This document shows positions 10,281-58,687 of a stretch of 64,000 nucleotides of DNA, piece by piece. Numbering within the stretch: position 1 is the first letter of the stretch; each line of letters opens with the position of its first letter. Source of the DNA: Syntrophaceae bacterium UBA6252 (GTDB lineage Bacteria > Desulfobacterota > Syntrophia > Syntrophales > UBA6807); NCBI GenBank assembly GCA_002441265.1, contig DJVQ01000022.1, forward strand, positions 24,290-88,289, in the 5' to 3' direction. The notes under the pieces are model-generated. The model saw only the letters and a program-made list of their open reading frames with translations. It was not told the origin of the DNA and made no database searches. The position numbers were made by a program, and so were the translations under genes.

Positions 10281-11777
10281 CTACCGCCCCGCGCCGGCCC
10301 CGATCTGCCGGGCCAGTTCACGGCTTTTCCTGAAATCGAAGTTCCGGAAGGCCTCCAGGCTGGCTTCCATGGTTTCCCTGTCCTTCCCGGCGCCGGCGGG
10401 AGGGCGGTTCCAGAGTCCCAGAAGAGCCCGCGTCGCCGTCAGGGCGTCCGCGCTTTTCTCGAGGGTCGTCACCAGGACGCCCTGGTCCTCCCCGCTCAGC
10501 CAGAGCGGGATGACGGCAAGACGGTTCTCCCGGTCCTCGAAAATGTCCCTTCCCTCCCGGTCGGACCGGAACGTGGCGTGGGAAAAACCCGGAGACCGGG
10601 GGTCGGCGTCCATGATCACCGCCGTGCCCGTGCCTTCCAGGGCTTCCGGATCCACCCTGACGACGAGAAGCCCCGAATCGGGCTGAATCCGGTCGTATCC
10701 GATCCGCCGGCGGTTTTCCACGAGATAGTACTTCCCGCCGGGCAGGGGGATTTTCACGACCAGGGTCTCCCCTCCCCTGTCCAGGGGCGCCAGGAAGACA
10801 CCCCGGGTCTCGCCGGGGTTCACCAGGACCGCCTGGTCCGGCGAGATCCATCCCAGCCGGATCCTCGTAAAGGAGGAAAGGCCCGGCGGCGGTGAATTGA
10901 TGTCGATGTAATGGGAGGACATGACATCCCAGGCACCCATGTACGTCGTGCACTCCTCCCACCGGTGGTTTCTCGAAGCGTCAGCCTGACGCTCGAAATT
11001 GTACAGTCAGGGGACGAGACGCCCGTCGGCGTGCACGCCTCCGAGGGCATGGAGAAAGTCATGGGCGAACATTCCCAGGGGGGCGTTTTCCGTTCCCACG
11101 AAGACCCCGCCTGAAAACTCCCGTCCCCCCTTCGAGCGCAGGGTGACGAACCGGGGATTTCCCCTCACTCCCGTGAGCATCCCCGGGTTGGCGCAGTAGC
11201 ACATCATGCCGTAGCCCTTTCCCGGAACGGTGGCGGCCCCCGGGACAATGAGCATGTTCTGGTACCGCGTGAAATCCACCCTGTCCTCCATGGCGGTCAT
11301 CGCGTCTTCTATGAGCTTCCTGACCCGGGTCCTGTCCACCTTGAAGTTGTCCGGGCTGATCCGGTACGCGGCCAGGGGTTCGGGAAGGGAGACCCACCCC
11401 ACGAAGTCGGACGTCACCCGGGCAAGGCCGTACGACTGGGCCTTGACATAGTCGCTCAATTCCTCCGTCACCCTCCGGCGGATCCTGTCCAGGGAAACCC
11501 TGGGCGCGACGTCGGGGAAACGGACCGCCGCCACGAGAAGACGCTGCTCCCCCGTTCCCCGGGTCGACTGGGGCCCCAGCAAATCCGGCGGGGCAGGGGT
11601 TTCCGTATTTCGTTTGAAGACGTTCTCTCCCTGAAAGACGTCCCCGCCCCGGGAACCTGCCGGCTGCGGGCCCTGGCAGGCCCAGACCAGGCAAAGAACG
11701 ACCCCAAGGGAAAGACCCCGCCATGACCATGCAATCTTTCGCAACATGACGGCCCTCCTTTTCTGAAAGGTTTTCAT
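10281..11777 (-). CDS. metzincin/M6-like metallopeptidase-like lipoprotein, open only if the TGA at 11007..11009 is read through (candidate selenoprotein, or else a pseudogene)
   Basis: Track ORFs 11007..11777 and 10281..10940 are in the same frame and are separated by a single TGA. Hand translation across the gap is continuous: ...FAHDFLHALGGVHADGRLVP-TGA-LYNFERQADASRNHRWEECTTYMGAWDVMSSHY... The N-terminus has a lipoprotein-type signal (LCLVWAC). The motif HDFLHALGGVH fits HxxxHxxGxxH. A SECIS-like hairpin follows the TGA. Confidence 0.5.
10969..10998 (-). promoter_or_regulatory. SECIS-like hairpin downstream of the in-frame UGA
   Basis: The mRNA reads UGA-CUGUACAAU-UUCGA-GCGUCA-GGC-UGACGC-U-UCGA-GAAA. 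The upper stem is 6 bp, the lower stem is 4 bp with one bulged U, and the apical loop is GGC. The GG begins about 21 nt after the UGA. Confidence 0.45.
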
Positions 11778-13093: not shown

Positions 13094-13121
13094 TTGATCT
13101 ATTCATCAGCATGGTTATAAT
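13094..13121 (+). promoter_or_regulatory. sigma-70-like promoter upstream of the selenopeptide ORF
   Basis: The sequence is TTGATC, a 16-nt spacer, then TATAAT. It lies about 90 nt upstream of the ATG at 13212. Confidence 0.4.
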
Positions 13122-13211
13122 ATGTCATTTGTATTCTATATTTGAAGGTTCTTTCTTTCCCGGGAGGGAGAACCCGGACGTTCAACCCAGTGGACGCAAA
13201 GGAGGCAGGCA

Positions 13212-13433
13212 ATGGAGTCATCGGATCTGAAGAAATTCCTTGCAGGATTGTGCATCGCCAGCCTGCTGGCAGGGACGAGCCTCGGCCTGGCCGGCTGCCA
13301 GAAGAAAGCCCAGACGAGTTGAACCGGCAAAACGGGTACTGGAAGTACCCAGGGAACCGGCGCTCCCGGAGCCCCCGACACGGGGAAGAGCAGTTGAACG
13401 GGAGAAAAGAAAGGTACCGGCGGTACCAATTAA
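13212..13433 (+). CDS. sbtA: SbtA-like RiPP precursor: 73-codon lipoprotein-signal peptide with two in-frame UGA (candidate Sec) codons
   Basis: This ORF is not in the track because it is broken by TGA codons. An AGGAGG RBS sits 6 nt before the ATG at 13212. Hand translation gives MESSDLKKFLAGLCIASLLAGTSLGLAGCQKKAQTS-U-TGKTGTGSTQGTGAPGAPDTGKSS-U-TGEKKGTGGTN, ending in TAA. The TGAs are at 13320..13322 and 13395..13397, and a hairpin follows each. It lies immediately upstream of a radical SAM/SPASM gene. Confidence 0.6.
13334..13350 (+). promoter_or_regulatory. SECIS-like hairpin 1
   Basis: GGGUAC-UGGAA-GUACCC forms a 6-bp perfect stem. The loop begins 17 nt after UGA-1 (13320..13322). Confidence 0.45.
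13413..13427 (+). promoter_or_regulatory. SECIS-like hairpin 2
   Basis: GGUACC-GGC-GGUACC forms a 6-bp perfect stem, or 5 bp with a CGGCG loop. The loop begins 21 nt after UGA-2 (13395..13397). Confidence 0.45.
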
Positions 13434-13675
13434 GTTTTTTCGGCAGAAGCCGGGCGGCGGAAGACGCCCCCCCGGGAACGGATGCGGTTCCGTTTCCCGA
13501 TGGAAGTCTTTCCCGGCCGGACACTCGAAGGATTCAATGAAAGGGATGACGCATCGTTTTGTCTCAGAATGGATGAAATTTTGAGCGCCTGGGAAGAAAC
13601 GGCGATGTCATCCCTTTTCACAGAGGGTCATTCGGGAAGTCTTCTCGAACCCGGACATGCGGTGAGAGGTTCGGA

Positions 13676-15286
13676 ATGCCGCCTTCCCCGCTGGAGGATC
13701 TGGAAAAAATCTGTCCCGTCTGCCGCTCCTGCCTGGCCGGAGCGGGACGGCACGATATCGTGGCGGGATATCCGGGCGGAGGGTCGAATCGATCCTTTGA
13801 CGAGTACCTGAAAGACAATGAAAGCGAACTCGGGGAACTCGCCTTTCTCCCCGAACTCGCGCTGCTGGAACGGATCACGGCGGAGCTGAAGAACGGGGAC
13901 GTTCGGATCCCCTCGCCGGCCCGGCGCTTCGAAACCAATCCATCCATCCGTCTGGAAACGTTTTCCTGGCAAGGGCTTGCCGCGCTCCTCGAGGATGGCC
14001 GTCCCTCCCGGCCGCGCCCCGTGAAAAAACGGGAGACCGTTCTCGTCTGGCTCCATCCCGTATCCCGGTCGGTCATGGTTCAGGCCGGATCGGACGCCGA
14101 CTGGCTGGCCTTGAAGATCGCCGCCGAAGGCATCGACAAGGAACGCCTGGCCGAGAGGGAGGGCGTCCCCCTGGCGGTCATCGAGGAAGCGATGTCCCGG
14201 GCCGTGGAAAAGGGGCTGGTCATCGCGCCCCGCTCCCTGATCCGGAGGAATCCCGAAAGGACCCCTCCGGGGGTCCGGGTGGACGAGGAATTTCTAGAAT
14301 CCCCCTTCTTCACCCTCCAGCTGCACATCACCCAGGACTGCGATCTCCGGTGCAAGCACTGCTACGACCGCAGCCGGAGGTCTTCCCTCGGGCTGATGAA
14401 AGGCACCGCGCTGCTGGACGAGCTCAGGGAATTCTGCAGGGACCGTCACGTCCGGGGCCAGGTTACCTTTTCCGGTGGAAACCCCCTCCTTCACCCCGGC
14501 TTCTTCGATCTGTACCGGGCGGCGGTCGAACGGGGTTTCGTCACCGCCGTCCTCGGGAATCCCGCTTCGAGGGAAAACCTGGAGCGAATCCTCCGGATCC
14601 GGAAACCGGCCTTTTACCAGGTCAGCCTCGAGGGGCTGAGGGAACACAACGATGCGATCCGGGGGAAAGGCAGCTTCGACAAGGTCCTCCGGTTCCTTCC
14701 CCTCCTGAGGGAATACGGGATCCCGTCCCTGGTGATGCTCACCCTGACAGGAGACAACATGGACCAGGTCATCCCGCTGGGAGACCGACTCGCGGGCCTG
14801 ACGGACGGGTTCACATTCAACCGCCTCGCCCAGGTGGGAGAGGGGGCGAACCTCCGCCTACCCGCCCGGGACGATTTTCAATCGTTCCTTGCATCCTACC
14901 TGAAAGCGTCGGAACGGAACCCCGTTCTGACCCTGAAGGACAATCTCTTCAACATCCTCCTGCGGCGGGAGGGGAAAAAGCCCTTCGGGGGCTGCGCCGG
15001 ATACGGATGCAGCGCCGCCTTCAATTTCCTCGCCGTCCTTCCCGACGGGGAGGTCCACGCCTGCCGGAAATTTCCTTCCCTCGTCGGAAACATCCACGAT
15101 CAGCGTCTCGCGGATATCTATGATTCCGAACCCGCCGAAAGGTATCGCCGGGGAACGGCGGCGTGCCGCGCCTGCCCGATCCGGCCCGTCTGCGGAAGCT
15201 GCCTTGCCGTGATGTACGGACGGGGGATGGATATTTTCAACTCCCGGGACCCCCACTGCTTCATGGAGGAGGGCTTTCCGGGGTAA
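13676..15286 (+). CDS. sbtM: radical SAM/SPASM-domain peptide maturase (SbtM-like)
   Basis: The CxxxCxxC motif sits in ITQDCDLRCKHCY. The C-terminal SPASM pattern is GGCAGYGC...GEVHAC followed by CRACPIRPVCGSC...HC. A roughly 200-aa N-terminal extension contains CPVCRSC. A GAGAGG RBS lies upstream. Confidence 0.8.
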   Translation: MPPSPLEDLEKICPVCRSCLAGAGRHDIVAGYPGGGSNRSFDEYLKDNESELGELAFLPELALLERITAELKNGDVRIPSPARRFETNPSIRLETFSWQGLAALLEDGRPSRPRPVKKRETVLVWLHPVSRSVMVQAGSDADWLALKIAAEGIDKERLAEREGVPLAVIEEAMSRAVEKGLVIAPRSLIRRNPERTPPGVRVDEEFLESPFFTLQLHITQDCDLRCKHCYDRSRRSSLGLMKGTALLDELREFCRDRHVRGQVTFSGGNPLLHPGFFDLYRAAVERGFVTAVLGNPASRENLERILRIRKPAFYQVSLEGLREHNDAIRGKGSFDKVLRFLPLLREYGIPSLVMLTLTGDNMDQVIPLGDRLAGLTDGFTFNRLAQVGEGANLRLPARDDFQSFLASYLKASERNPVLTLKDNLFNILLRREGKKPFGGCAGYGCSAAFNFLAVLPDGEVHACRKFPSLVGNIHDQRLADIYDSEPAERYRRGTAACRACPIRPVCGSCLAVMYGRGMDIFNSRDPHCFMEEGFPG

Positions 15287-15328
15287 TCCCTTCCCTGTCC
15301 GGCCCGCGGTCCGTCCGGGCAAAACGGC

Positions 15329-15354
15329 GGAGGGCCGCCCATGGGCGGCCCTCC
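15329..15354. terminator. strong GC hairpin between convergent genes
   Basis: GGAGGGCCGCC-CAUG-GGCGGCCCUCC forms an 11-bp perfect stem. It has no clean T-run on the plus strand and a short GTTTTG on the minus strand. Confidence 0.5.
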
Positions 15355-15400
15355 CGGTCTGTATCGCCGCCGCGACTCACGGCGAAAATCTTCCGGAGCG

Positions 15401-17413
15401 TCACCTTACATACAGAATCGATTCCCGGGTAAGATCCTTGAGGACCTCCTTCCCCATGTCTTCAACCTTCCTTCGGACAAGTTCCTTCTCGCCGAACGTG
15501 ATGGCATCGGTGAGACAGGTCTCCGCGCAGACGGGCAGGTCCCCCACGTGGATCCTCTCGAAGCAGAGGTCGCACTTGTGGGAGTATCCCCGGCCCCCGT
15601 CATACTGGATCACCCCGTAGGGGCAGGACTGGATGCAGGCACAGCCGCAGCTCTGGCAGCGGGCCGCCTCCCCCATGACCGCTTCCGCGGAGAGGCCGGC
15701 GGCGACCTCGTCGAAGGTCCCCGACCGTTCCTTCGGGTTTCTCAGGGGCATCACCGCCCGCTTGGCCGGATCGTATTTTTCCTTCTGGACCTTTGCCGTA
15801 TCCGTCCAGTCCCTTTCCCGGTTTTCACGGAGATCGAGCCCCTTCAGGTATCGGTCGATGGAAACGGCCGCCCTCTTTCCCGCGGCGATGGCCTCGACGA
15901 CCGACCGCGGTCCCGTGACGGCGTCCCCCCCCGCGAAGATGTCGGGATCCTCGCTCTGGAGGGTGACCGGATCGACCCGCAGGGTGCCCGTGCCGGTGAT
16001 CGTGCAGGCGCATTCCGGAGTCAGGCAGGACCAGTCCGTTTCCTGGCCGATGGAAACGATGACGTCGTCCACGGGGCGGGCGAACTCCGTTCCCGGGACA
16101 GGCACCGGTTTCTTCCTCCCGCTTTCGTCCGGTTCGGCAAGGCGCATCCTGATGAATTCGACTGCCTTGACGCGGCCCTGCTCGCCGATGAAGCGGGCAG
16201 GATAGAGAAGGGTCTCGATCCGGATTCCTTCATCCTCGGCTTCCCGGATTTCCTCTTCTCCCGCGGGCATCTCCTCGAGACTCCGGCGGTAGGCGATGAA
16301 GACCTCCTCCGCGCCGAGACGGCGGGCCGAGCGGGCGGCGTCGATGGCGGCATTCCCGCCGCCGATGACGGCCACCCGTTTTCCCATGACGGGCGGTTTC
16401 CCGCTGTTCACGGCGATGAGGAATTCATAGGCGGGATGAATGCCTTTCAGCCCTTCACCTTCGCTTCCCAGCTCCTTGCAGACCTGGGTGCCCACCGCGA
16501 AGAAAAAGGCCCTGTAACGTTTCTTCCTCAGTTTCGCGACGGTGATCTTCTTTCCGAAGTCCACCCCCGTTTTCATTTCGACGCCGAGGTCCCGGATCGC
16601 CCCGATCTCCCCCTCGATGACGTCCCGGGGCAGCCGGTATGCCGGAATCCCCCGGGTCAGCATGCCGCCGATGACGGGGGCCTTCTCGTACACAGTGACC
16701 CCGTACCCTTCCCGGGCGAGATAATAGGCGCAGGTGAGTCCCGCCGGCCCCGATCCGATGACGGCGACTTTTTCCGCCTTTCGGTCCCGGACGGGGGGAA
16801 CGTAACGGGTCTCCGCCTTCCCGTCCAGGTCGGCGAGGAAACGGTGGACGGCCCGGATGGAAACCGCCTCGTCGATCTCGCCCCGGTTGCAATGGGTCTC
16901 GCAGGGGTGGTAGCAGACCCTCCCGCAGACGGCCGGGAAAGGGTTCTCCTCCTTGATGAGGGCGAGAGCCTCCGGGAATTTCCCCTTGGCGGCCAGTCCG
17001 AGGTAGCCTTGGACGTTGATGTGGGTCGGGCAGTGGGCCATGCACGGGGCGGCTTTCGTCTTCTCCGCGGCCAGGGTCTCCGGGATCGTTTTGCATCCGT
17101 TGCAGACCTCCCGGTCGATCCGGACGATCCCCGTCTGGGCGTCCTTGCCGATGGCCCCTTCCGGGCAGGAGGGCAGGCATTTCGGTTCCGGGCAGTGCTG
17201 GCAAGGCATGACCCAGGAATCCACGGCGACGTTCGGGTACGTGCCTCTTTCCCGGTTTTCCACGCGAAGGTAGTAGGGGATCCCGTTGGGCATGGCCCGG
17301 GTGTGGTCAATGATCTCGTGGTAGTTCCTGCAGGCCACGATACAGGTGCTGCACCCGATACAACGGCTCAAATCTATCATCAGGCTTAACTGTTTCATGG
17401 TCTCCTCCTTCAC
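15401..17413 (-). CDS. chimeric electron-transfer subunit: DmsB-type 4Fe-4S ferredoxin with an inserted GltD-like NAD(P)H/FAD oxidoreductase module
   Basis: The N-terminus carries CIGCSTCIVAC, CQHCPEPKCLPSCP and CNGC. The middle is glutamate-synthase small-chain-like (CPTHINVQGY, CGRVCYHPCETHC, VAVIGSGPAGL, VAVIGGGNAAIDAA). The C-terminus carries CQSCGCACIQSCP and CDLCFERI...PVCAETC. The start overlaps the Mo-subunit stop (ATGA). Confidence 0.8.
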   Translation of the reverse strand: MKEETMKQLSLMIDLSRCIGCSTCIVACRNYHEIIDHTRAMPNGIPYYLRVENRERGTYPNVAVDSWVMPCQHCPEPKCLPSCPEGAIGKDAQTGIVRIDREVCNGCKTIPETLAAEKTKAAPCMAHCPTHINVQGYLGLAAKGKFPEALALIKEENPFPAVCGRVCYHPCETHCNRGEIDEAVSIRAVHRFLADLDGKAETRYVPPVRDRKAEKVAVIGSGPAGLTCAYYLAREGYGVTVYEKAPVIGGMLTRGIPAYRLPRDVIEGEIGAIRDLGVEMKTGVDFGKKITVAKLRKKRYRAFFFAVGTQVCKELGSEGEGLKGIHPAYEFLIAVNSGKPPVMGKRVAVIGGGNAAIDAARSARRLGAEEVFIAYRRSLEEMPAGEEEIREAEDEGIRIETLLYPARFIGEQGRVKAVEFIRMRLAEPDESGRKKPVPVPGTEFARPVDDVIVSIGQETDWSCLTPECACTITGTGTLRVDPVTLQSEDPDIFAGGDAVTGPRSVVEAIAAGKRAAVSIDRYLKGLDLRENRERDWTDTAKVQKEKYDPAKRAVMPLRNPKERSGTFDEVAAGLSAEAVMGEAARCQSCGCACIQSCPYGVIQYDGGRGYSHKCDLCFERIHVGDLPVCAETCLTDAITFGEKELVRRKVEDMGKEVLKDLTRESILYVR

Positions 17414-19551
17414 TTCGCGATGCGGACGCGCGTGGACACATGGGACTCACCGCCCACCACATCCTGCCATTCCAGGGTGGAACCGGCGTCGGGAATCAGG
17501 ATATTGTTCGACACGCCCTCCCCCATGACGGCCACCCGGCCGACGGTGGATCCGAACCCATGCCCCAGGCCGAGGCAGTCGGGCCGGATGGTTTCCGTCA
17601 GTTTCAGCCGGACCCGGATGCTGCCGCTCGGGGACTCGAGCGTCACGAGGTCCCCGTCGGAGAGACCCATTTTCGCCGCCGTGCCGGAATGGATCAGAAG
17701 GGGATTTTCGAAAAATCCCGACACCCGGTCGCGGAGCTGCGGGTTGTTGTGGGTCCACTGGCCCGAGCCGGAGTGATAGATGGTCCGGTACGAAACAAGG
17801 ATGAACGGAAACTCCTTCGCGTTGACCTCGTATTCCGGGGCCAGTTCCGGCCTCGGGAACGCCTGGTTCCAGGGCGCTTCCTCGAGGTCCTCCCACCAGA
17901 GGTGCAGTTTCCCGCTCGGGGTGCCGAAACCGCCCGCCTTCTCGTACTTCCGGAACCCCATCGTTCCCGGGGACCAGAGCCCGCCGATTTCCTGGAGCTT
18001 CCTCACCGACAGCCCCAGTCCCTTCAGCTGGATGTCGTAGTAGGCGATGTCGTTCTCGAACCGGAAATATTCCGGGACGATCCGCTTCCCGAGCTCGATG
18101 AAGACCTCGTTGGAGTGACGGCATTCCCCCGGCGGTTCGACGACGGGCTGCCGGAGGGCGATGCCGTGGCCGAAATTGTACCACCAGGGCATGTACAGGA
18201 GTTCCCAGCGCTCGAAGTAGGACTTGTCGGGCAGTACCAGGTCGGCGTATTTCGCCGTCTCCGACATCATGATCTCGAAACAGACCAGAAGTTCGAGAAG
18301 GGGCTCCCCCTTGCCGTCGGTCATGCACACCGCCCGCTGCCATTCCTGCTGGCCCATTTCCGTCAGGGCCGGGTTGGACTCGGCGGTGATCAGGATTTTC
18401 AGGCCCCCGTCCTTGATGGCCTGGGCCTCGTACCAGGTGGGCTCCATGATGAAGGAGTACTTGGCGAACCTGTCCCGGTCGGGGCCCGTACGGTGCCACC
18501 CGAGTTCATGGAGATTCGGGCCCGCCGGAACGGGTTCCACGGGGGACATGGGAGTCAGGTCGGGCAGGGGCTGCCCCCCCGGATTGTCGACGTTGCCCGT
18601 AACGACCAGGAATATGTTCCAGGCATGGGCGAAATCCATTGCATTTCCGAGCATGATGCCCTTGAAACTGTCCACGCCCACGGAGGGGGCCCGCGCACAT
18701 TCCTCCGCCAGATCGACGATCGTCCCGGCGGGCACGTCGCAGATCGCGGCCATCCGCTCGGGGGTCTTGTCGGCGATGTACACTTTCAGTTTCTCGAAAT
18801 CCCCCTCACGAACCCATCTTTCCACGAACGCCCTGTCATAGAGGCCGTTCATGACAAGGTGGTGAATCATCCCCAGGAAGAAAGCGGTGTCCCCGCTCGG
18901 CTTGATGGGAATCCACCAGTCCGCCTTGGCCGCTTCCGGGGTGAACATGGGATCGAGAACCACGAGTTTCGCCCCCCTGTCCCTGGCGTCCAGAATGTCC
19001 CTCGGGACCGAGGCGTCCTCGAGCCCGCCGAAGGCGCGCCGGCCGGACAGAATCATGATTCCTCCCTTGGGAACGGCGAACCACGCCGGAGGAATATGGT
19101 GATTGGGAACCCCGCCCATGGTCCTGATGAAACCGACGATCTTGGCCGAGTCGCAGTGCGGGAGGGCGGTGTTGATGAAACCGCCGTAAGCGTTCAGGAA
19201 CCTCCACTTCGGGTCCGTGATGCTGTGGGGGAAAAAATTCGCCGTGAGCTTGTGGGCCTCCCCCCTCGCCCTGAGCCCTCCGATTTTCTTCTCCAGGATA
19301 TCCATGGCCTCATTCCAGGATATCCGCTCGAACTTCCCTTCCCCCCGTTTGCCGACGCGCTTCAGCGGGTGGGTCAGGCGGTCCGGGGAATACTCCAGGG
19401 AAACGCCTGCCATCCCTTTCACACAGGCTTTTCCCCGGGCTTTGGGATTGCCCCGGACCTCCTTCAGGACGCCATTTTCGACCCTGGCGATAATGGCGCA
19501 TTCGGCCTTGCATTGGTAACAAGCGGTGGGGATCCACTTTGATTTTTCCAT
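17410..19551 (-). CDS. molybdopterin (Mo/W-bisPGD) oxidoreductase catalytic subunit, cytoplasmic type
   Basis: The N-terminal Fe-S motif is CYQCKAECAIIARV...GKACVKG. It has DMSO-reductase-superfamily length and layout. There is no twin-arginine signal. The substrate cannot be assigned from sequence. Confidence 0.85.
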   Translation of the reverse strand: MEKSKWIPTACYQCKAECAIIARVENGVLKEVRGNPKARGKACVKGMAGVSLEYSPDRLTHPLKRVGKRGEGKFERISWNEAMDILEKKIGGLRARGEAHKLTANFFPHSITDPKWRFLNAYGGFINTALPHCDSAKIVGFIRTMGGVPNHHIPPAWFAVPKGGIMILSGRRAFGGLEDASVPRDILDARDRGAKLVVLDPMFTPEAAKADWWIPIKPSGDTAFFLGMIHHLVMNGLYDRAFVERWVREGDFEKLKVYIADKTPERMAAICDVPAGTIVDLAEECARAPSVGVDSFKGIMLGNAMDFAHAWNIFLVVTGNVDNPGGQPLPDLTPMSPVEPVPAGPNLHELGWHRTGPDRDRFAKYSFIMEPTWYEAQAIKDGGLKILITAESNPALTEMGQQEWQRAVCMTDGKGEPLLELLVCFEIMMSETAKYADLVLPDKSYFERWELLYMPWWYNFGHGIALRQPVVEPPGECRHSNEVFIELGKRIVPEYFRFENDIAYYDIQLKGLGLSVRKLQEIGGLWSPGTMGFRKYEKAGGFGTPSGKLHLWWEDLEEAPWNQAFPRPELAPEYEVNAKEFPFILVSYRTIYHSGSGQWTHNNPQLRDRVSGFFENPLLIHSGTAAKMGLSDGDLVTLESPSGSIRVRLKLTETIRPDCLGLGHGFGSTVGRVAVMGEGVSNNILIPDAGSTLEWQDVVGGESHVSTRVRIAK

Positions 19552-19716
19552 GGCGATCTCCTTTCCCCGTACTCAGCCCGGCCTGCCTTCGCACGCCGGT
19601 TCCGGCGATTGGTCAACCGGTCTCCAGGCCCCGCGGAGTCTCCTTCCCCTCCCATTTTTCAAGGTCCCTCGGAGAAACGTTCACGGCCGGCACCGTGAGA
19701 GTCCGGCAGGGCCCCG

Positions 19717-19857
19717 TCATTTCTTGTCTTCCCCGGATTTCCCGGGATATTCCGGGTATTTCCCGCGGTATACTCTGACAATGAGCCATGTAAGAAAACA
19801 AAAGGCGGCAAAGATGATCCATATCGACAGGTCGAAGGGGGTGTACGAGACGTCCAT
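19717..19857 (-). CDS. candidate small membrane protein (46 aa)
   Basis: This ORF is not in the track. It reads MDVSYTPFDLSIWIIFAAFCFLTWLIVRVYRGKYPEYPGKSGEDKK, with one hydrophobic helix and a basic tail. A GAGAGGA lies 7 nt upstream. It starts 12 nt after the FNT stop. Confidence 0.3.
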   Translation of the reverse strand: MDVSYTPFDLSIWIIFAAFCFLTWLIVRVYRGKYPEYPGKSGEDKK

Positions 19858-19869
19858 CGGGATGTCCTC

Positions 19870-20751
19870 TCACAGTTTCTGCATGAAGTTTTTCTTGTCC
19901 CGGTAAAGGGCCATGACGCGTTTCGGATTGGATACGAGCTGAAAGACGATGCCGACGAAGAAAATGCCCCCGATGAAATTCCCGAGAACGGTGTACAACT
20001 GGTTGTGGGCCCAGCCGTATTGTCCGAAGCCCCAGTGGAGAATGACCGGGGCCGCCGACGCCGCCGCCCCGCCTGCCGCCAGAAAGAGGTCCTGCTGGAA
20101 GAGAGGGAGGGCAAGAAACCCGATATTGGCGATGCAGTGCTCCGTCATGCCGGCAACGAAGGCCAGGGGTCCGTAAGCCGCCATGGCGATCTTTGCGATG
20201 TCCTCGTTGGCCTTGACGTACAGGAGGGCCGCCGTCTGGAGCGTCCAGGTGCAGATGATTCCGAGGGCGAAGATCTGTCCCGGGGTCATCCCCGTTTTTT
20301 TCACGGCAATGGCGTGGGACTGTACAAGCCAGGGCAGGGCCATGTAGCTGCCTCCCTTGCTCACCACCCACATGAAAAACATGCTCCCGGCGAAATTGCC
20401 GGCATACCCGGCAACGATACCGACAAGGAACCAGAACCAGTTGATTCTTCTGTGAAAGACGCCGATGATTCCCACGGCCATGTCGGCCGTGACCAGGGTC
20501 ATTCCGCTGAACAGGATGATGACGAGGGAGAAAGCGAAAACCAGCCCCATCACGAGATTGGCAATACCCGGGGCGAGGTTCGTTCCGACACCGGCGCTCA
20601 CCGAAAGGGCGAGCATGGCGCCGAAGACGACGAATGCGCCCCCCGCAAATGCCGAGAGGCAAAAAGCGAAGGGTCGGTTGCGGAGCATGTCCCACTTGTA
20701 GGTACAGATGTCCGCTACCCTGACGACCAGTTCATCGACGTCCACCGGCAT
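19870..20751 (-). CDS. formate/nitrite transporter (FNT) family channel
   Basis: From the Met at 20751 it reads MPVDVDELV, followed by an FNT-like six-helix body (FAGGAFVVFGAML, GNFAGSMFF, NIGFLALP). Confidence 0.85.
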   Translation of the reverse strand: MPVDVDELVVRVADICTYKWDMLRNRPFAFCLSAFAGGAFVVFGAMLALSVSAGVGTNLAPGIANLVMGLVFAFSLVIILFSGMTLVTADMAVGIIGVFHRRINWFWFLVGIVAGYAGNFAGSMFFMWVVSKGGSYMALPWLVQSHAIAVKKTGMTPGQIFALGIICTWTLQTAALLYVKANEDIAKIAMAAYGPLAFVAGMTEHCIANIGFLALPLFQQDLFLAAGGAAASAAPVILHWGFGQYGWAHNQLYTVLGNFIGGIFFVGIVFQLVSNPKRVMALYRDKKNFMQKL

Positions 20752-20983
20752 GGAGCGCCCTTTCGTCGTGTCAGAAGAAACGGAAGGAACGATTGAATGG
20801 AAACGAGCCCCTGTATCCTGATCGTCCGGGGAGCAGTGGTGAGGCGGGGGGGATGAAACGTATTGCCGAAGCTCCAATGGAAAAAGCCGCGGAATTGGAG
20901 AAAAAAACGATCAACCCGGAATTCGATTATTGCCGAGATCGGATCGTTTGTCAAGACAGCCGGCGTGATCGGCAAGTCGTCGC

Positions 20984-47155: not shown

Positions 47156-49081
47156 TCAGTTGATTTCGATTTCCAGAACCGCTTTCGTCCTCATGTAGAT
47201 CCAGTACTGTTTCCCGTTTTCGATGGTCTGCAGTGTGTTGCTGCTGTAGTTGGGATAGTAGATCAGCCAGCGACCGCCTTCGAAGAGCCACACGCTCGTG
47301 TATTTGCCCTTGATCGATTCGAGGGCCCCGGCGATGTCCGCCCGGACCGGCGTGCCGATCATGGTGATGACGTTCCAGCCCTTGTTGAGGGAGTACTCGA
47401 CCGTGTCGTACTCTTCTTCCGTCGGGCTGACGGTGACGGAACAGCCGTCCGAGGACTGGAGTCCGCCGCGGTCGGTGACGGTGAGCTGGAATTCCAGGAC
47501 CGTGGCCGCCGTAACCTGGGGCGCCGTGAAGACCGGCGCGGCCGCCGTGGGATCGGACAGGACCACCGGGGCTCCCGAAAGCTGGGTCCACCGGTAGGAA
47601 GCGATTCCGTCATCGGGGTCGGAGGAATTGCCGCCGTTGAGCGTCACCACGTCCCCGCTGCCGGCCGCCTGATCCGTTCCCGCATCGGCCACGGGGGCTT
47701 CGTTCTTCCAGCTCACGTTCACGATGCAGTTGTCCTGGGATTTCAGGCCGCCCGCGTCGGTCACCGTCAGCTGGAACACCAGGGAGGCGCCTTCCATCGT
47801 GACATCGGGGGCGACGAAATAGGGCCGGGAGGAAGAGGCGTCGGACAGGGCCACGGGGATACCCGAGGTCTGCGTCCACCAGTAGGAGGAGATACCGTCG
47901 TCGGGGTCCTCGGACAGGGAGGCGTCGAGGGTGACCGTGTATCCTTCGTACACGCTCCGGTTGTCACCGGCATCGGCCACGGGAGGATCGTTCACCCAGG
48001 TGATGTTCACGATGCAGGTGTCCTTGGATTCCAGTCCGTCGGCGTCGCGGACGGTCAGCTGGAAGACCAGCGAAGCGCCGTCGAAGCTGACGAACGGGGC
48101 CTGGAACACCGGGGAGGAGGTTTCGGAATTGGACAGCTGGACCGAAGGTCCTTCCAGCTGGAGCCAGGAGTAGGAAAGGACGTCTCCGTCGGGATCGGTG
48201 GAGTTCTCGCCGCTCAGGGTCACTTCATCGTTCTCTTCCACCTGCTGATCCGGTCCCGCGTCGGCCTCGGGCGCACCGTTTTCGAGCATGAAGCTCACCG
48301 CGACCGCGTGGTTCGCCGTGACGTTGCTGAACGTGACGGACTCGGCATCGCCCTGGGACACCCCGTCCACGACCACGTTCGACACGCGGTATCCGATTTC
48401 CGGGGTCATCGTGAAGGTGGCGTCGTCTCCCTGGTTCACCGAAACAGCGCCGGAGGGGGAGATGATTCCGTTACCCGACGAAGAAGCCGTGATGGTCCAG
48501 GTGATCGGCGTGAAGACCGCCTGGATCGTGTGATCCGCCGCCACGGAGGAGAAGGTGTAGTAGGCAATGGCGCCCTGGGACACCCCGTCCACGACCACCT
48601 TCGAAACCATGTACCCCGTGCTCGGGGCGATGGCGTACGTCACGGAAGAGCCCTCGCTCACGACGGCCGTCCCCGAGGGAACCATGGTCCCGCTCCCCGA
48701 GGAAGAAGCCGTGATCGTGAAGGTCGACGGAACGGCGGCAGGAACCGTGTAGGCGACTTCATCCGAAAAATCGCTTTCCAGGCTGCTGGAATTGATGGCC
48801 GTCGCGGCGAAGTAATAGGTTTTCCCCGCCTCGAGGCCGCTCATGGTGATGCTCGTCGCCAGATTGCTTGTGAAAACATTCGACGTGTAGGCCCCGGACT
48901 GCAGGCCCTTGTAGATGCGGTATCCTGCAATGTCCGTTTCGCTGTTGGCGTTCCAGGTCAGTTGGACCTCGTCAGCGAAGGCTGAGAAACAAATGCATCC
49001 AATGATGAGAAGCAATGTCATCCCGGAAAGGATCCCTTTCAGGACGGATCGGGATTTTGATCTGAAAAATAAGTTTTTCAC
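47156..49081 (-). CDS. large secreted repeat protein (Fn3-like, two InlB-B-like repeats, three PKD-like repeats, unique C-terminal domain)
   Basis: The GTG start at 49081 has a perfect AGGAGG 7 nt upstream. The signal peptide ends in CFSAFA. The internal repeats are visible in the translation. Confidence 0.7.
   Translation of the reverse strand: MKNLFFRSKSRSVLKGILSGMTLLLIIGCICFSAFADEVQLTWNANSETDIAGYRIYKGLQSGAYTSNVFTSNLATSITMSGLEAGKTYYFAATAINSSSLESDFSDEVAYTVPAAVPSTFTITASSSGSGTMVPSGTAVVSEGSSVTYAIAPSTGYMVSKVVVDGVSQGAIAYYTFSSVAADHTIQAVFTPITWTITASSSGNGIISPSGAVSVNQGDDATFTMTPEIGYRVSNVVVDGVSQGDAESVTFSNVTANHAVAVSFMLENGAPEADAGPDQQVEENDEVTLSGENSTDPDGDVLSYSWLQLEGPSVQLSNSETSSPVFQAPFVSFDGASLVFQLTVRDADGLESKDTCIVNITWVNDPPVADAGDNRSVYEGYTVTLDASLSEDPDDGISSYWWTQTSGIPVALSDASSSRPYFVAPDVTMEGASLVFQLTVTDAGGLKSQDNCIVNVSWKNEAPVADAGTDQAAGSGDVVTLNGGNSSDPDDGIASYRWTQLSGAPVVLSDPTAAAPVFTAPQVTAATVLEFQLTVTDRGGLQSSDGCSVTVSPTEEEYDTVEYSLNKGWNVITMIGTPVRADIAGALESIKGKYTSVWLFEGGRWLIYYPNYSSNTLQTIENGKQYWIYMRTKAVLEIEIN
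47423..48280 (-). repeat. three tandem ~95-aa PKD-like coding repeats
   Basis: The unit is N.(A/P)P.ADAG.(D/N)(Q/R)....VTL....S.DPD(G/D).(L/I).SY.W(L/T)Q..G..V.LS....(S/A).P.F.AP.V....(L/V).FQLTV.D..GL.S.D.C.V.(I/V)(T/S). It occurs three times, at aa 292-387, 388-483 and 484-577 of the track ORF. Confidence 0.8.
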
Positions 49082-49779
49082 GGCGGAACCTCCTGGTTTT
49101 TCGATGCGACCAAGCAAAAGCAGCATCTGGAGGTGCCGCCGTTTGCCCGGCAACCCTGCTACCGTATCCTCGCTGAGGACTTAGGCCAGTGGCTTTGCGT
49201 CCCACCCTTTCGGATGGTTTGCCTTTTTCGAGACAAATCGTGATGCGTTTTCTGTTTTCAAAAAGCTTCAATGACCTTGCTTTTGCTTCCTTATAAGCAA
49301 ATAGGATGCCATGCAAAATTACTTTATGATTTCAGAAAGATAGAATTGGTCCGATTGCGTTTTCCATTGCAGGCGCACACTTTTCGGGAACCGGGCGGCG
49401 GCAGTCAGTCGATCTTCCTTCCGGTTAACGACGCCAACCAATTGTAGTTGTTATTCTTTATTTAAATTGTTCGGGGAGGGTTCCCACGGCGAATACCGGT
49501 TGGCAGTTGTACATCGATTACAATTTCGAAACTCCGGTGCAAGTTATGCAAGACGGAGGGATCGGCGGAAGGCGCCTTCCTTCCGCGGCGGGCGGCGGTG
49601 CCCGACGGCGGGGGAAAACCCGCCTCAGGAACCCGCGGTTCTAGCTGTTCCCGTCATGTCCGGGGGAACGGGCAAGCTTTTCGGAAAGGAAACAAACCCC
49701 GCTTCCGGGGTGGAGGTATGACATTTGCAGGACTTCAAGGCAGATGGCTCTATAAATTCGCAAACCGGGAGATTTTCCC

Positions 49780-51749: not shown

Positions 51750-54068
51750 ATGTCAAAGGAGGCATGCTCCGTGAAAGCTGGAAAATATTACATTCTTATT
51801 GCGATTTTATCAATCGTTTTCATCGGCTGCGGAACTTCCGAGACAAAAAAAATGAAATTTTATAATACCGGCGAACAGCTCTACCAGAAGGGGGACTACG
51901 AAAAGGCCGCCCGGAACTTCGCCAACGCGGCCATGGTGGATCCGAATTTCGCCGAGGCTTATGAAAAACTGGGTCTGTCCCTCTACCGAATGACCAGGAT
52001 CCGGGAAGCGTACGGGGCCTTCGAGAAGGCGGTGGAACTCAAACCGGGACTCCTGGACGCCCAGGTCCATCTGGGGAAGATCCTGCTTCTTGCCGGGAAA
52101 AAGGACGAAGCCCTGGCGAAGGCGGACCTCGTCCTGGCGGCGAGGCAGGGGGACGGGGAGGCACTGCTGCTGCGGGCGGCAAGCCTCGCGGCCCTCGGGA
52201 AGACGAACGAGGCCCTGGGCATCCTAGAAGGCCTGGTTTCGAAGGACCCAAAAAATGTAGAAGTCCTCTTTCTCATGAGCAAGATCCAGATGGACACCGG
52301 GGACGAGGCCGCAGCGGAGCGGACCCTGAGGAACCTCATCGCCAATGACGGCGGAAACGTCGCCGCCAGGCTCGCCGTCGCGAGGCTCCTGGAAAAGAAC
52401 GGAAGGATGGACGAAGCGGAAAGCGAGTATCAGGCCATCGCCGGCCTGTCCCCGGGGGATGACAAGTACAAGCTGCTTCTCGTCGGCTTTTACGAACGGG
52501 CGGGAAAATCCGAGGACGGCGAGCGGGTCCTGAAGGAACTCGTGGCGGCCCATCCCGACCGGACGGAATACCGGATCTATCTCGCCAGTTTCTACAGCGG
52601 GAGGAAACAGGAGGCGGAGATGCGGCAGGTCCTCGAAAAGACGATCCAGGACCTTCCGAAGGAATACGAACCCTACCAGATGCTCGCCGCTCACGAGATG
52701 GAAAAGAAGGAACGGGGGAAGGCCGCCCAGTTGATGGAACAGTTCATGGGCATCGTTCCCTACGGGCCGGAGCATCTCAAGGCGAAGATCTTCCTCGCCG
52801 CCATCTATTCCCAGGACGGGAAAATGGACCAGACGAAACGCCTCGTGGAGGAAGTGCTGAAGGAAAATCCCCGGGACGTCGCGGCCCACCGGATGAAGGG
52901 CGACCTCCTGCTCACGGAGAAGGATTTCCCCGGCGCCATTGCCGAGTACCGCCTCGTCCGCCAGGAACTCCCGGACGACATCCGGGCCACGCTGGCCCTC
53001 GCAAGGGCGCACCTTCTGAACGGGGAACAGACCCTGGCGGAGGACATGTACAAGGATGCCCTGAAAATCGATCCCTCGTCCCGGGAAGCACTGAACATGC
53101 TCGGCGATATCGCCATCGCGAAGAAGGACTACCGGTCGGCGGACGAATACGCCGAGAAGATCCTTGTGCTCGATCCCGCCTCGGCCCATCCTCTATATAG
53201 AAAGGGCGTCGTTCTGGCCCTCCAGGGAAAGGATGACGAGGCCCTGCCGCTCTTCGAGAAGGCGCTCGCCGTGGACCCCGGTTTCTCGCCGGCCATGGTC
53301 CAGCTCACGGGGCTCCTCATCCGGAAGCAGAAAGACGTCAAAGGCGCGATCCGCCGGGTAGAGGAACAGATCAAGAAGACCCCGGAAAACGCCGACTATC
53401 CCCTCCTGCTGGCGGAACTGCTCGTCAGGAACGGGGAAAGCGGAAAAGCCCGGCAGGTGCTTTCCCAGGCGGCGGAGAAACGTCCCAACGTCCTGACATA
53501 CCGGGTCCGCCTCGCCGACCTGGACCGGATGGAGGGAAAACGCGACAAGGCCGTCGAGGCCTACGCGGCGATTCTGAAGGGAAACCCCGGCAACCAGTCG
53601 GTTTCCATGGCCCTGGCCTCCCTGTACGAGGAAATGGGGGACTTCGACAAGGCCGGGAAACTTTACGAGGACATGCTGTCCCGGAACCCGGAAGACGGCA
53701 TCGCGGCGAACAATCTCGCCTTCTTCTACGCCGAGCACGCCCCCGCGCCGGAGAACCTGGAAAAGGCGGAGAAACTGCTGACCCCCTTCTTCGAGAAGAA
53801 CAGGGGAGCCCCTGCGATCGCCGACACCATGGCCTGGATCAAATTCCGTAAGGGCGATTACGAGAAGGCACGGGTCCTGCTGGAGGAAAGCGCGGGCACG
53901 GGCGGAGAGATGTCCCCCCCGATGGCGTATCACCTGGGGATGACCCTGTCCCGTCTGGGGAATAAGGAAAAGGCCGTCGATTACCTGGCGAAAGCCGTGA
54001 ACAGCGGCACAAACTTCCCCGGAAAAGGGGAAGCGGAAAAGACGCTGAAGGAGCTGAAATCGAAATGA
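51750..54068 (+). CDS. prsT: TPR-repeat lipoprotein, PEP-CTERM system PrsT-like
   Basis: The lipobox is IVFIGC and the body is TPR throughout. It heads the EPS export cluster. The likely true start is the GTG at 51771, which has AAGGAGG 8 nt upstream. Confidence 0.7.
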   Translation: MSKEACSVKAGKYYILIAILSIVFIGCGTSETKKMKFYNTGEQLYQKGDYEKAARNFANAAMVDPNFAEAYEKLGLSLYRMTRIREAYGAFEKAVELKPGLLDAQVHLGKILLLAGKKDEALAKADLVLAARQGDGEALLLRAASLAALGKTNEALGILEGLVSKDPKNVEVLFLMSKIQMDTGDEAAAERTLRNLIANDGGNVAARLAVARLLEKNGRMDEAESEYQAIAGLSPGDDKYKLLLVGFYERAGKSEDGERVLKELVAAHPDRTEYRIYLASFYSGRKQEAEMRQVLEKTIQDLPKEYEPYQMLAAHEMEKKERGKAAQLMEQFMGIVPYGPEHLKAKIFLAAIYSQDGKMDQTKRLVEEVLKENPRDVAAHRMKGDLLLTEKDFPGAIAEYRLVRQELPDDIRATLALARAHLLNGEQTLAEDMYKDALKIDPSSREALNMLGDIAIAKKDYRSADEYAEKILVLDPASAHPLYRKGVVLALQGKDDEALPLFEKALAVDPGFSPAMVQLTGLLIRKQKDVKGAIRRVEEQIKKTPENADYPLLLAELLVRNGESGKARQVLSQAAEKRPNVLTYRVRLADLDRMEGKRDKAVEAYAAILKGNPGNQSVSMALASLYEEMGDFDKAGKLYEDMLSRNPEDGIAANNLAFFYAEHAPAPENLEKAEKLLTPFFEKNRGAPAIADTMAWIKFRKGDYEKARVLLEESAGTGGEMSPPMAYHLGMTLSRLGNKEKAVDYLAKAVNSGTNFPGKGEAEKTLKELKSK

Positions 54069-54625
54069 ACAAAGGATCTTTCATCGCTTTTTCCCTGATC
54101 CTCATTCTCCTCGCGTTTCCGGGGTCTCTCCCGGCGGAGGAAGGGGCCTACCGGATCGGGCCGGGGGACGAAATCGAGATATCGGTCTGGAAAGACACGA
54201 ACCTGACCCGGCAGATCGTCGTCCCGCCGGACGGCATCATCACCTTCCCCCTCATCGGAGACGTGGACACGAAAACCCTCACCATCTCCGACCTCCGGAA
54301 GACCGTCACGGAAAAGCTCGGCACCTATATCAAGACCCCATCCGTCACCGTCATCCTGGTCAAGCCCAACAGCCTGATCGCATACGTGGTGGGAAAGGTG
54401 AACAAGCCCGGCCAGTATGCCATCAACATGGACACCACGGTACTCCAGATCCTCGCCATGGCCCAGGACCTGAATCCTTTCGCTTCGGCCGGCAGCATCA
54501 CCATCCTGAGAAAGGAAAACGGCGAAACGAAAACGATCCCCTTCGACTACAACGAGGTCAAAAAGGGGAAAAACCTGCAGCAGAACATCGTCTTGAAACG
54601 GGGGGACGTGGTCATCGTACCGTAG
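54065..54625 (+). CDS. polysaccharide export protein (Wza/EpsE-like periplasmic component)
   Basis: It has a signal peptide, the motif YRIGPGDEIEISVW, the soluble-ligand-binding segment GEVNKPG-type (GKVNKPGQY), and VVIVP at the C-terminus. Confidence 0.85.
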   Translation: MNKGSFIAFSLILILLAFPGSLPAEEGAYRIGPGDEIEISVWKDTNLTRQIVVPPDGIITFPLIGDVDTKTLTISDLRKTVTEKLGTYIKTPSVTVILVKPNSLIAYVVGKVNKPGQYAINMDTTVLQILAMAQDLNPFASAGSITILRKENGETKTIPFDYNEVKKGKNLQQNIVLKRGDVVIVP

Positions 54626-54794
54626 AAAACCGGCGAAGGCCTGAAGAAACAAACGGGGGGAAAACCATTTCAGCCGCCGCGCCGGCGCGGTTCCTCCCCC
54701 GGGCTGTCCCCGGGGAGGCCGGGTTCCGGCACCGGCGGGAACGACAGGAAAGATTCCGGCTTGTATCCAAGCCGTCAGAAAGGAGGGGTCCGGA

Positions 54795-55958
54795 ATGGGG
54801 AAAAACATTGCCATCGCGCTGGCGCTTTCGATTTTCATCCTGAGCCCGGCGGTTCTCATGGGAGCGGACGTCACGTTGACGCCGTCCGTGAGCCTGAAGG
54901 GAGAATATAACGACAACATCAACTACACGGCGGAAGACAAAAAAGGAGATTACATCGGCTCCGTCGCGCCGGGACTGAAACTGGAATATGAGACTCCCCG
55001 TTTTTCCATGAAAACGGAAGGGAAGGCGGAGATTTTGAGATACCTTGACGTTACGGAGAACAACACGGAGAAGTACAACGTCTCTCTCGACGGAAACTAC
55101 CGGTATCTCGAACAGTCGAACCTGTTCGGACAGGCCTCGTTCGTCCGCGACACGACCCTGGACCAGGAATTCGACGAAACCGGGCTCGCCAGGAAAAGGG
55201 TCAATCGGAACGCCTACACCGGGGGGCTGGGGTTCCTCCATTATTTCACCGCGAACGTATCCGCCGGTCTCGCCTACCAGTACCAGCGGAAGGACTATTC
55301 CGGAGATTTCTACACGGACAGCTACGGCCACGACATCGCCGGCCGTCTCGACTATGTCTTCAACGACGGCATCGACACGGTATCCCTGCAACCCATGTTT
55401 GCGACCATGCGTTCGGACCTGATCCGGGTCAACCAGTACGGCACCGCCCTCGGCCTCACGCACCGGGTTTCGGACACCGTGGAGGTCTCCATAAAGGGCG
55501 GGGCGGTTTATTCCGAGACCACCGACAGGGAAAACGAAGGGGAAGGGGACAAGACCGGATGGGGCTGGGTCGCCGAGGCGGGACTGAAGAAGCAATGGGA
55601 AACCTTTTCCCTTTCCTTCAATTATTCCCGGCAGGACATGCTCGACTCCTCCTCGTCCTTCGTGACGGTGAACCGGTTCCTCCTTTCGGCCCGATACGAC
55701 CTGACGGAACGGCTTTCCCTGGATCTGGCGGGCGGGCTCTACTTCACCAGGTCCTCCGATGTCCTGGAGAAGGACGAAACGGACGAGCGGTCGTTCTATG
55801 TCCAGCCGAAAATAAGTTATCGGTTCACGGAAAACATCCGCCTGGATCTCGCCTATTCTTACTCGAAGACGAAGGACCGCCTGCGCGAGGAGAACGACGC
55901 GTGGGACCGGAACCAGGTCTGGTTTCTTCTCACGTTCGAGTTCCCGAAGAAACTGTGA
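54795..55958 (+). CDS. outer-membrane beta-barrel protein of PEP-CTERM-type EPS loci
   Basis: It has a signal peptide and alternating-hydrophobic strands, with a C-terminal aromatic (LLTFEFPKKL). Position supports the assignment. Confidence 0.55.
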   Translation: MGKNIAIALALSIFILSPAVLMGADVTLTPSVSLKGEYNDNINYTAEDKKGDYIGSVAPGLKLEYETPRFSMKTEGKAEILRYLDVTENNTEKYNVSLDGNYRYLEQSNLFGQASFVRDTTLDQEFDETGLARKRVNRNAYTGGLGFLHYFTANVSAGLAYQYQRKDYSGDFYTDSYGHDIAGRLDYVFNDGIDTVSLQPMFATMRSDLIRVNQYGTALGLTHRVSDTVEVSIKGGAVYSETTDRENEGEGDKTGWGWVAEAGLKKQWETFSLSFNYSRQDMLDSSSSFVTVNRFLLSARYDLTERLSLDLAGGLYFTRSSDVLEKDETDERSFYVQPKISYRFTENIRLDLAYSYSKTKDRLREENDAWDRNQVWFLLTFEFPKKL

Positions 55959-56088
55959 GGCACAGCGGGCACGATCCTTGCTAACACCTGCTTAAAGCGA
56001 AAAGGGGCTCGGGCGCACCCCGGCGGGGGTGCCGGAGGAAGAGCCGGCCCCGATCGAAAGAAATCATTCAGAAGGGTTGCAGACGACC

Positions 56089-57846: not shown

Positions 57847-57867
57847 TCGTTTGAAACGGAAGGCCTG

Positions 57868-58674: not shown

Positions 58675-58687
58675 GGGAATCCGCTCC

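Follow-up and report, generated by a model that had tools for sequence, protein, structure and literature searches.

The pairing of the small selenopeptide precursor SbtA with the radical SAM maturase SbtM was reportedly predicted by Haft and Basu in 2011. Thio(seleno)oxazole formation by SbtM is credited to Lewis et al. 2021 (Bandarian laboratory) where that work is cited in PMC13188914. With the Geobacter SbtM, a unit of Gly-Cys or Gly-Sec becomes 4 Da lighter; beta-hydrogens are abstracted and an oxazole with a free thiol or selenol is formed, and the enzyme has been likened to anSME-like oxidation of the Cys beta-carbon (PMC9204691). In the Geobacter system, absorbance near 304-313 nm has been reported. 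Members of the SbtA family are stated to have at least two Sec (Bandarian perspective, PMC9204691), and TIGR04081, with 2 Sec, is one of the 119 known selenoprotein families catalogued in a 2026 review (PMC13188914). A preliminary description of the DNA studied here had named both the Haft prediction and the Bandarian thio(seleno)oxazole chemistry, in agreement with this literature (PMC9204691, PMC13188914); its further remark that a form with two Sec and a lipoprotein signal was uncharacterised does not stand, the family having already been listed with 2 Sec (PMC13188914).

The DNA analysed was a single stretch of 64 kb, hereafter the window. Positions 13212-15286 of it very probably represent a two-gene sbtA-sbtM cassette of the TIGR04081/TIGR04082 RiPP selenopeptide family. 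The first gene, a small one that seems to stop after 36 codons, encodes a predicted 73-residue precursor with two selenocysteines.

The sbtA and sbtM genes

Direct reading of the plus strand showed that sbtA occupies 13212..13433, with an ATG at 13212-13214, in-frame TGA codons at 13320-13322 and 13395-13397, and a TAA at 13431-13433, which the frame reaches only when both TGAs are read through. The resulting translation of 73 codons is MESSDLKKFLAGLCIASLLAGTSLGLAGCQKKAQTS-U-TGKTGTGSTQGTGAPGAPDTGKSS-U-TGEKKGTGGTN. The first UGA (13320..13322, +) corresponds to Sec37 in the context T-S-U-T-G and is kept in L002, a locus from a close relative; the second (13395..13397, +) corresponds to Sec62 in the context S-S-U-T-G and is kept in L002 and in a still closer relative, L001. 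Assignment of the gene as sbtA, encoding a precursor peptide and containing two in-frame UGA (Sec) codons, is based on this translation, on its orthologs and on NCBIfam model TIGR04081, to which the peptide scored 45.4 bits (cutoff 30.5), with residues 1-26 aligned to model positions 1-26 of 27 and the same outcome whether U was written as C or X. Comparison of the peptide with a local Pfam copy gave no match, and the precomputed label PF27804 is present on truncated SbtA homologs.

Truncation is also what gene callers produce, the product called in L002-L004 being a 36-aa stub. The corresponding 36-aa ORF of the window, 13212-13322, appears in the ORF list at a min_aa of 30; the preliminary description had found the ORF track empty here, which depends on the length cut-off and does not hold at that value. 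Its gene coordinates, reading frame, two TGAs, promoter, ribosome binding site and hairpin 3′ of each TGA were all present. The called 36-aa products are what would be seen if the UGAs were ordinary stops, the product a 36-residue leader-like peptide, and the hairpins incidental or terminators; a 36-mer of this kind, however, would be a leader with no core, leaving SbtM no [SGA]-U/C-[SGT]-G motif.

The adjacent gene, sbtM, lies on the same strand at 13676..15286 (+), separated from sbtA by a spacer of 242 nt, and encodes a protein of 536 aa annotated as a radical SAM/SPASM thio(seleno)oxazole maturase on the basis of TIGR04082, Pfam, invariant cysteines and predicted fold. Its score against TIGR04082 was 686.8 bits (cutoff 350), with residues 37-529 aligned to model positions 24-516 of 516, so that the SbtM and SbtA models were both exceeded at their curated cutoffs; the runner-up NCBIfam family, ACGX radical SAM, scored 157 bits, under its cutoff of 400. 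Pfam matches to Radical_SAM (PF04055, 68.5 bits) and SPASM (PF13186, 38.4 bits) bear out the earlier identification of the neighbor as a CxxxCxxC plus SPASM radical SAM enzyme. The three cysteines of the CxxxCxxC motif (C222, C226 and C229) and all eight C-terminal ones (C440, C445, C463, C497, C500, C506, C509 and C528) are invariant in 22 homologs.

The structure predicted for SbtM had a mean pLDDT of 73.7. Its best PDB fold matches were SuiB, CteB and SkfB (E 5e-12 to 1e-10, about 470 aligned columns), and residues about 90-180 were predicted to form a beta3-alpha3 unit of the kind that binds leaders. The modeled fold thus resembles those of leader-binding RiPP maturases. Comparison with PDB sequences found no solved structure of SbtM itself. 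Relatives of the enzyme are numerous: 2,777 proteins matched at E <= 1e-30, and in GTDB species-representative genomes at least 562 stretches encode one. The nearest assembly-derived relative, that of L002, showed 69% identity, and identity to GTDB species representatives was at most 55% among the matches listed.

Upstream of sbtA, a sigma-70-type promoter-like site, TTGATC-16-TATAAT, was found at 13094..13121 (+), matching at 10 of 12 positions. Scanning of 2.6 kb gave 2 sites of such quality, compared with 0.3 expected, and in L002 the aligned elements read TTGATG and TATACT. The ribosome binding site, AGGAGG, read directly at 13200..13205 (+), lies 6 nt 5′ of the ATG and is kept in L002 as AAGGAGG. 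Within the sbtA-sbtM spacer, which had a folding z-score of -2.6, a long hairpin (GGGAUGAC...GUCAUCCC) followed by UUUUC spans 13543..13619 (+), and its arms are conserved in L001 and L002. The spacer sequence could be aligned just to these two loci and not to more distant ones. The hairpin may be an attenuator or a partial terminator limiting read-through into sbtM.

RNA hairpins and predicted decoding of the UGA codons

In classical bacterial selenoprotein genes, E. coli fdhF for example, the SECIS element is a stem-loop directly 3′ of the UGA with a G in its apical loop. A candidate element of this type was found after each UGA of sbtA by folding and by a covariance model. The first (13324..13359, +) contains an apical hairpin, GGGUAC-UGGAA-GUACCC, at 13334-13350, which begins 11 nt past the UGA; RNAfold gave it 7 bp and a GGA loop, within an outer CCGG/CCGG helix formed by 13324-13327 and 13356-13359. 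The second (13413..13427, +), GGUACC-GGC-GGUACC, begins 15 nt past its UGA. The distance from UGA to loop is about 18-21 nt, and the range accepted by bSECIS search tools takes in such distances.

By energy alone these hairpins are unremarkable, with z-scores of -1.4 for hairpin 1 alone, -1.1 for hairpin 2 alone and -2.1 for the whole 121 nt; their significance must therefore rest on comparison with other genomes. Such weak single-hairpin scores would also be seen if the UGAs were plain stops, as would the flagging of hairpin 2, together with the T-run 3′ of it, as terminator-like. For this comparison, a covariance model was built from 116 family hairpins of other genomes, with those of the window and of its close relative L002 excluded, and the whole 64-kb window was scanned on both strands with filters off. 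The best two matches were 13407-13433 (24.2 bits, E 2e-4) and 13329-13355 (23.6 bits, E 3e-4), that is, the two sbtA sites; the third reached 14 bits (E 0.17). It is this model, not folding energy, that settles the significance of the sbtA hairpins. With Rfam at gathering thresholds, no SECIS family was matched in the window. The sole Rfam match there was a c-di-GMP-I riboswitch.

Comparison with close relatives indicates that the sbtA frame continues past the first UGA. In L002, the peptide reads MDREDLKKFLAGLCVASLLAGASLGLTGCQKNAQTS-U-SGKAGTGSTQETGKSS-U-SGSK, with both UGAs at aligned places. The window gene is set apart from it by many synonymous changes of leader codons and, between the UGAs, by a 24-nt indel that preserves the frame; the changes around the UGAs are also synonymous. 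Hairpin 1 is identical and its outer helix is retained. The L002 peptide ends earlier, and a conserved GGUACC-GGU-GGUACC hairpin lies 3′ of its stop codon; that this second hairpin is conserved beyond the stop suggests that selection acts on the RNA and not on the protein. Of L001, a 95% relative, just the 3′ end of sbtA is covered; the second UGA is present in this fragment, and 3 of 3 substitutions are synonymous in the sbtA frame. Frame, UGA positions and hairpins are thus kept in the orthologous loci, the conservation beyond the first TGA on which the preliminary description had made its reading depend.

For a wider survey, 80 GTDB loci with SbtM were translated in six frames, with TGA written as U, and searched with a small leader profile. 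This yielded 78 SbtA-like frames, 73 of them distinct and almost all located just upstream of sbtM, with such a frame adjoining sbtM in the great majority of the 80 loci. The number of U per distinct peptide was 0 in 11, 1 in 6, 2 in 23, 3 in 27, 4 in 3 and 5 in 3. The cores repeat the motif [SGA]-U-[SGT]-G: among 160 Sec sites, position -1 was S, G or A in 157, position +1 was S, G or T in 138, and position +2 was G in 133. Ser was the commonest choice at -1 (82/160), and Thr occurred at +1 in 16 of the 160. The 11 peptides without a core UGA (of 73) carry Cys at the motif positions, for example TSCSG. Alternation of Sec and Cys, which had been proposed as a check on the two-Sec reading, was thus seen family-wide, and it is the pattern expected of a true selenoprotein family.

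Hairpins were scored in the same loci as contiguous stems of >=6 bp starting 6-34 nt downstream of the codon. They were found 3′ of 81% of the 160 UGA codons, as against 28% of 65 core Cys codons and 11% of shuffles, with offsets from the UGA peaking at 14 and 11 nt, and their consensus was RGUGC-AGGUN-GCACY. Several pair types occur at single stem positions (CG:35, GC:32 and UA:30 at pair 16/32; GC:79 and AU:40 at pair 17/31; UA:97 and CG:26 at a further pair), and 216 double-change cells were counted, compared with 90 in shuffles, a value reached by 0 of 500 shuffles. Slid registers of the hairpin alignment were 25-47% paired. The hairpins were picked by a hairpin search, which biases the percentage paired upward but leaves untouched both the range of pair types and the contrast between UGA and Cys codons. 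At C-terminal UGAs, hairpins persist 3′ of the stop codon. Read in frame, the consensus hairpin gives G-[AT]-G-[GS]-T, which explains a recurrent peptide motif; this motif would largely be translated SECIS.

These results bear directly on whether the UGAs are ordinary stops. Under that reading, there would be no call for the frame, the second UGA and the in-frame indel to be conserved downstream of the first UGA, for other species to have Cys in place of UGA at equivalent motif positions, for hairpins to be far commoner after UGA than after Cys codons or in shuffles, or for a model trained elsewhere to single out both sbtA sites. We consider it extremely improbable, although one further point in its favor is that no Sec machinery was seen in the window: no tRNA gene was found in the 64 kb, and neither selA, selB nor selD was among the 30 window proteins scanned with NCBIfam.

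The same null result would also suit a read-through without selenium, in which a near-cognate tRNA inserts Cys or Trp at the UGAs and the product is a thio-oxazole. SbtM takes Cys as well as Sec in vitro (PMC9204691), and all-Cys orthologs exist. Passive read-through, however, would have no need for hairpins of SECIS type that are correctly spaced, conserved and covarying, and a second window gene carries a UGA/Cys and hairpin signature of its own; decoding without selenium is accordingly rated as very improbable. Reassignment of UGA as a sense codon throughout was rejected, since TGA is the commonest stop codon in the window and ends 34 of 57 predicted genes.

The second gene lies 2.2 kb upstream of sbtA, at 10281-11777 (-), and is an M6-metalloprotease-like gene with a single frame of 498 codons and one in-frame UGA (11007-11009). 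At the position of this UGA, 18 full-length homologs have an invariant Cys (RLVP-C-LYNF). In the window, a hairpin of 12 bp begins 8 nt past the UGA; it has one bulged U, and its loop is GGC. Three Cys homologs lack the hairpin because synonymous differences break the stem. A blind scan of the window for further in-frame UGAs, using third-position GC on both sides and too noisy at 60.6% GC, yielded this gene as its one real candidate. It is a probable second selenoprotein gene, and its signature, typical of genuine genes of this type, suggests that the genome decodes Sec; being a single case, it is possibly a pseudogene in which TGC has become TGA.

No other gene appears to belong to the cassette. 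In all-against-all clustering of about 80 loci, sbtM was the only family present in more than 9, and tblastn of the window neighbors against 84 loci returned scattered matches only (ABC-transporter-like genes in 1-5 loci, a TolC-like protein in 3 and UbiB in L001), evidence that the sbtA-sbtM cassette has no conserved partner genes. The M6-like protease, considered as a conserved partner, was rejected with tblastn matches in 0 of 84 loci.

Leader, proposed maturation and export

Residues 1-29 of SbtA (13212..13298, +) combine the region covered by the family model (residues 1-26) with a lipoprotein-type signal peptide pattern. K7-K8 would form the n-region and F9-L26 the hydrophobic stretch, followed by L26-A27-G28-C29, which fits the four-residue lipobox pattern used, [LVI][ASTVI][GAS]C. 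In the survey, the strict lipobox was present in 26 of 73 peptides, and 36 of 73 fitted a relaxed pattern; Cys occurred at residues 21-38 in 55 of 73. The preliminary description had taken two Sec combined with a lipoprotein signal as something not yet characterised; that such a form is unusual is not borne out by these counts, nor by the 23 of 73 peptides with 2 Sec and the 27 with 3, two or three Sec being usual in the family.

The following course of events is proposed. The sbtA gene would be transcribed from its own promoter. The hairpin with a GG-containing apical loop, 11-15 nt past each UGA, would act as a bacterial SECIS and recruit SelB and Sec-tRNA(Sec), and translation is expected to pass through both UGAs because each has such a SECIS-type hairpin downstream. 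Hairpin 2 might, in addition to this role or in place of it, be a terminator. The resulting precursor would have 73 residues, and its core, rich in Gly, Thr and Lys, would hold Sec37 and Sec62, both in S-U-T-G. Cytoplasmic SbtM, by homology to the Geobacter enzyme, would bind the conserved N-terminal region and carry out two radical SAM oxidations per Sec. Each Sec would cyclise with the carbonyl of the preceding residue, here Ser, to give an oxazole with a free selenol and a loss of 4 Da per site. Formation of the thio(seleno)oxazole by this SbtM, with loss of 4 Da at x-Cys/Sec, is thus inferred from its studied homolog. That it acts on Ser-Sec is a supposition based on how common Ser is before Sec in the family, at about half of the sites surveyed (82/160).

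Export is the least certain part of the scheme. The N-terminal region may also serve as a lipoprotein-type signal peptide. Since no conserved transporter or protease gene lies beside the cassette, the modified peptide would probably be exported by the general Sec pathway; cleavage and lipidation at Cys29 would then leave a peptide of 45 residues, anchored in the membrane and bearing two seleno-oxazoles. The order given is an assumption, as the radical SAM enzyme has to do its work ahead of export. We know of no demonstrated case of a radical SAM RiPP that undergoes cytoplasmic maturation and is then routed via Sec/Lgt/LspA. Export and lipidation at Cys29, the weakest step, are judged from the sequence pattern to stand at about even odds, and Sec insertion, modification and lipidation of SbtA are all deduced from sequence.

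A full version of this scheme, in which the leader doubles as a lipoprotein signal and the lipid-anchored 45-residue peptide, with its two selenol-bearing oxazoles, is metal-binding or redox-active in the envelope, is put forward only tentatively. If true, it needs no dedicated exporter or protease, and an envelope role would explain the cassette as a self-contained two-gene unit. The cassette is spread over anaerobic Desulfobacterota, Nitrospirota and others.

Alternatively, SbtA may be a genuine SbtA/SbtM selenopeptide without being a lipoprotein, its N-terminus serving either as a RiPP leader alone or as a signal peptide removed by some protease, such as signal peptidase I. In that case the product would be soluble, either secreted or cytoplasmic, and Cys29 might be a further substrate of SbtM, Gly28-Cys29 fitting the Gly-Cys motif modified in vitro (PMC9204691). 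Consistent with this are the limited occurrence of the strict lipobox, some members having Ala-x-Ala-type sites or no Cys there, and the restriction of the family model to the N-terminal 26 residues, as for an enzyme-recognised leader. L-A-G-C behind KK and a hydrophobic stretch is, on the other hand, a textbook lipobox; most members have a Cys in the corresponding region, and the lack of a conserved protease or exporter beside the cassette fits the general secretion and lipoprotein pathways. We regard the non-lipoprotein alternative as possible but somewhat unlikely. The selenopeptide assignment of the locus is common to this alternative and to the lipid-anchored scheme.

Comparison with known systems

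In terms of annotation, ordinary gene callers cut sbtA to 36 codons, and the two-Sec reading recovers what would be the true substrate of the adjacent enzyme. A rule for finding such genes follows from the survey, namely the motif [SGA]-U-[SGT]-G together with an RGUGC-AGGUN-GCACY hairpin 11-14 nt downstream. With this locus, the SbtA/SbtM family gains a well-formed member whose lineage is uncultured; real novelty, if any, would lie in the final product and role of that family.

Among enzymes of solved structure, the best PDB sequence matches to SbtM were SuiB (5v1q/5v1s/5v1t), CteB (5wgg/5why), SkfB (6efn) and anSME (4k39). They share with it the CxxxCxxC motif and auxiliary-cluster cysteines. 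These enzymes differ in forming Lys-Trp or thioether cross-links, or formylglycine, and not oxazoles; the N-terminal region of SbtM is longer (about 210 residues), and identity to them is only 15-20%.

The sbtA hairpins share with the classical bSECIS of fdhF the position just downstream of the UGA and the G in the apical loop. Unlike that element, SbtA hairpins are short (6-8 bp) and have a family-specific consensus; several occur per gene, some of them in the 3′ untranslated region.

The closest known system is SbtA/SbtM itself (TIGR04081/TIGR04082; PF27804 GSU1558_StbA-like). Each of its defining traits that can be checked in sequence was present. The window locus agrees with it in exceeding the curated cutoffs of both models, in the order sbtA, spacer, sbtM with a SPASM radical SAM maturase, in a low-complexity core with predicted Sec in x-U-x-G, in SECIS-type hairpins within or just past the small gene, and in having at least 2 Sec sites (PMC9204691, PMC13188914). 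It differs in its motif, S-U-T-G, whereas GGUG/SGUG is quoted in the literature, and in having Ser before Sec where the studied peptide has Gly-Cys/Sec (PMC9204691); in addition, its host is uncultured and the locus is known from sequence alone. As read here, the locus is a clear further example of the known SbtA/SbtM system and not a new type of system.

SbtA cores and gene arrangement among related loci

Among the 80 GTDB loci with SbtM that were surveyed (L005-L084), the peptide motif G-[AT]-G-[GS]-T was found to recur 4–6 residues C-terminal to each Sec of the SbtA cores. This motif is largely the SECIS hairpin read in frame (GGU GCA GGU GGC ACC); as judged by eye, most all-Cys SbtA orthologs in the survey lacked it. 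Neighbouring UGAs in the cores (USSU, UNGU) had one hairpin in common. Three loci (L034, L042, and L062) carried two sbtA genes each, and in five (L023, L024, L025, L049, and L065) sbtA was located downstream or on the opposite strand.

The order sbtM then sbtA was observed in a related contig, L004 (ENA ERZ27257484 k141_1244011, 2,670 nt), the ends of which (1–141 and 2530–2670) were identical over 141 nt. From its sequence this contig looks circular or tandem. Since L002, a relative with 69% SbtM identity, carries these genes on a stretch of chromosome, a k-mer assembly artefact or a tandem duplication of the cassette is the probable origin of L004.

Regions flanking sbtM

The 242-nt spacer between sbtA and sbtM had a folding z of -2.6. 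At 13543–13619 (plus strand) it contained a long hairpin, GGGAUGAC...GUCAUCCC, with UUUUC on its 3' side; the arms were kept only in L002 and L001, the 95% relative. A possible role for this hairpin is attenuation, which would set the precursor:enzyme ratio.

Compared with the 95%-identical L001, in which sbtM and a UbiB-like gene were 122 nt apart, the window had an extra 5.7 kb directly 3' of sbtM (15285–20980). This segment contained genes for a GltD-like NAD(P)/Fe-S oxidoreductase, a PhsA/Fdh-alpha-like molybdopterin oxidoreductase (713 aa, with no in-frame UGA in its gene), and a formate/nitrite-family channel.

Other genes of the window

The window is confirmed to be ordinary chromosome by a run of XrtA/PEP-CTERM exopolysaccharide genes (51750–62689, plus strand), encoding a PrsT-like TPR protein, chain-length determinant, system ATPase, and priming glycosyltransferase, and by mutS, aconitase, icd, rlmN, and pilB. 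On the minus strand, an M36-like metallopeptidase gene (47156–49153) was immediately preceded by a c-di-GMP-I riboswitch (49146–49233; 87.2 bits against a gathering score of 35).

An M6-metalloprotease-like gene (10281–11777, minus strand) formed a single 498-codon frame with one in-frame UGA at 11007–11009, which aligned with a Cys invariant in 18 homologs (RLVP-C-LYNF). A pseudogene produced by a TGC-to-TGA change is the alternative to a Sec codon at this position. On the 3' side of the UGA lay a 12-bp hairpin that has a GGC loop and a bulged U; three Cys homologs did not have this hairpin. On these sequence features, the M6-like product is probably a selenoprotein, to be set beside the 119 selenoprotein families in the list of a 2026 review (PMC13188914), none of which is a protease or peptidase family.
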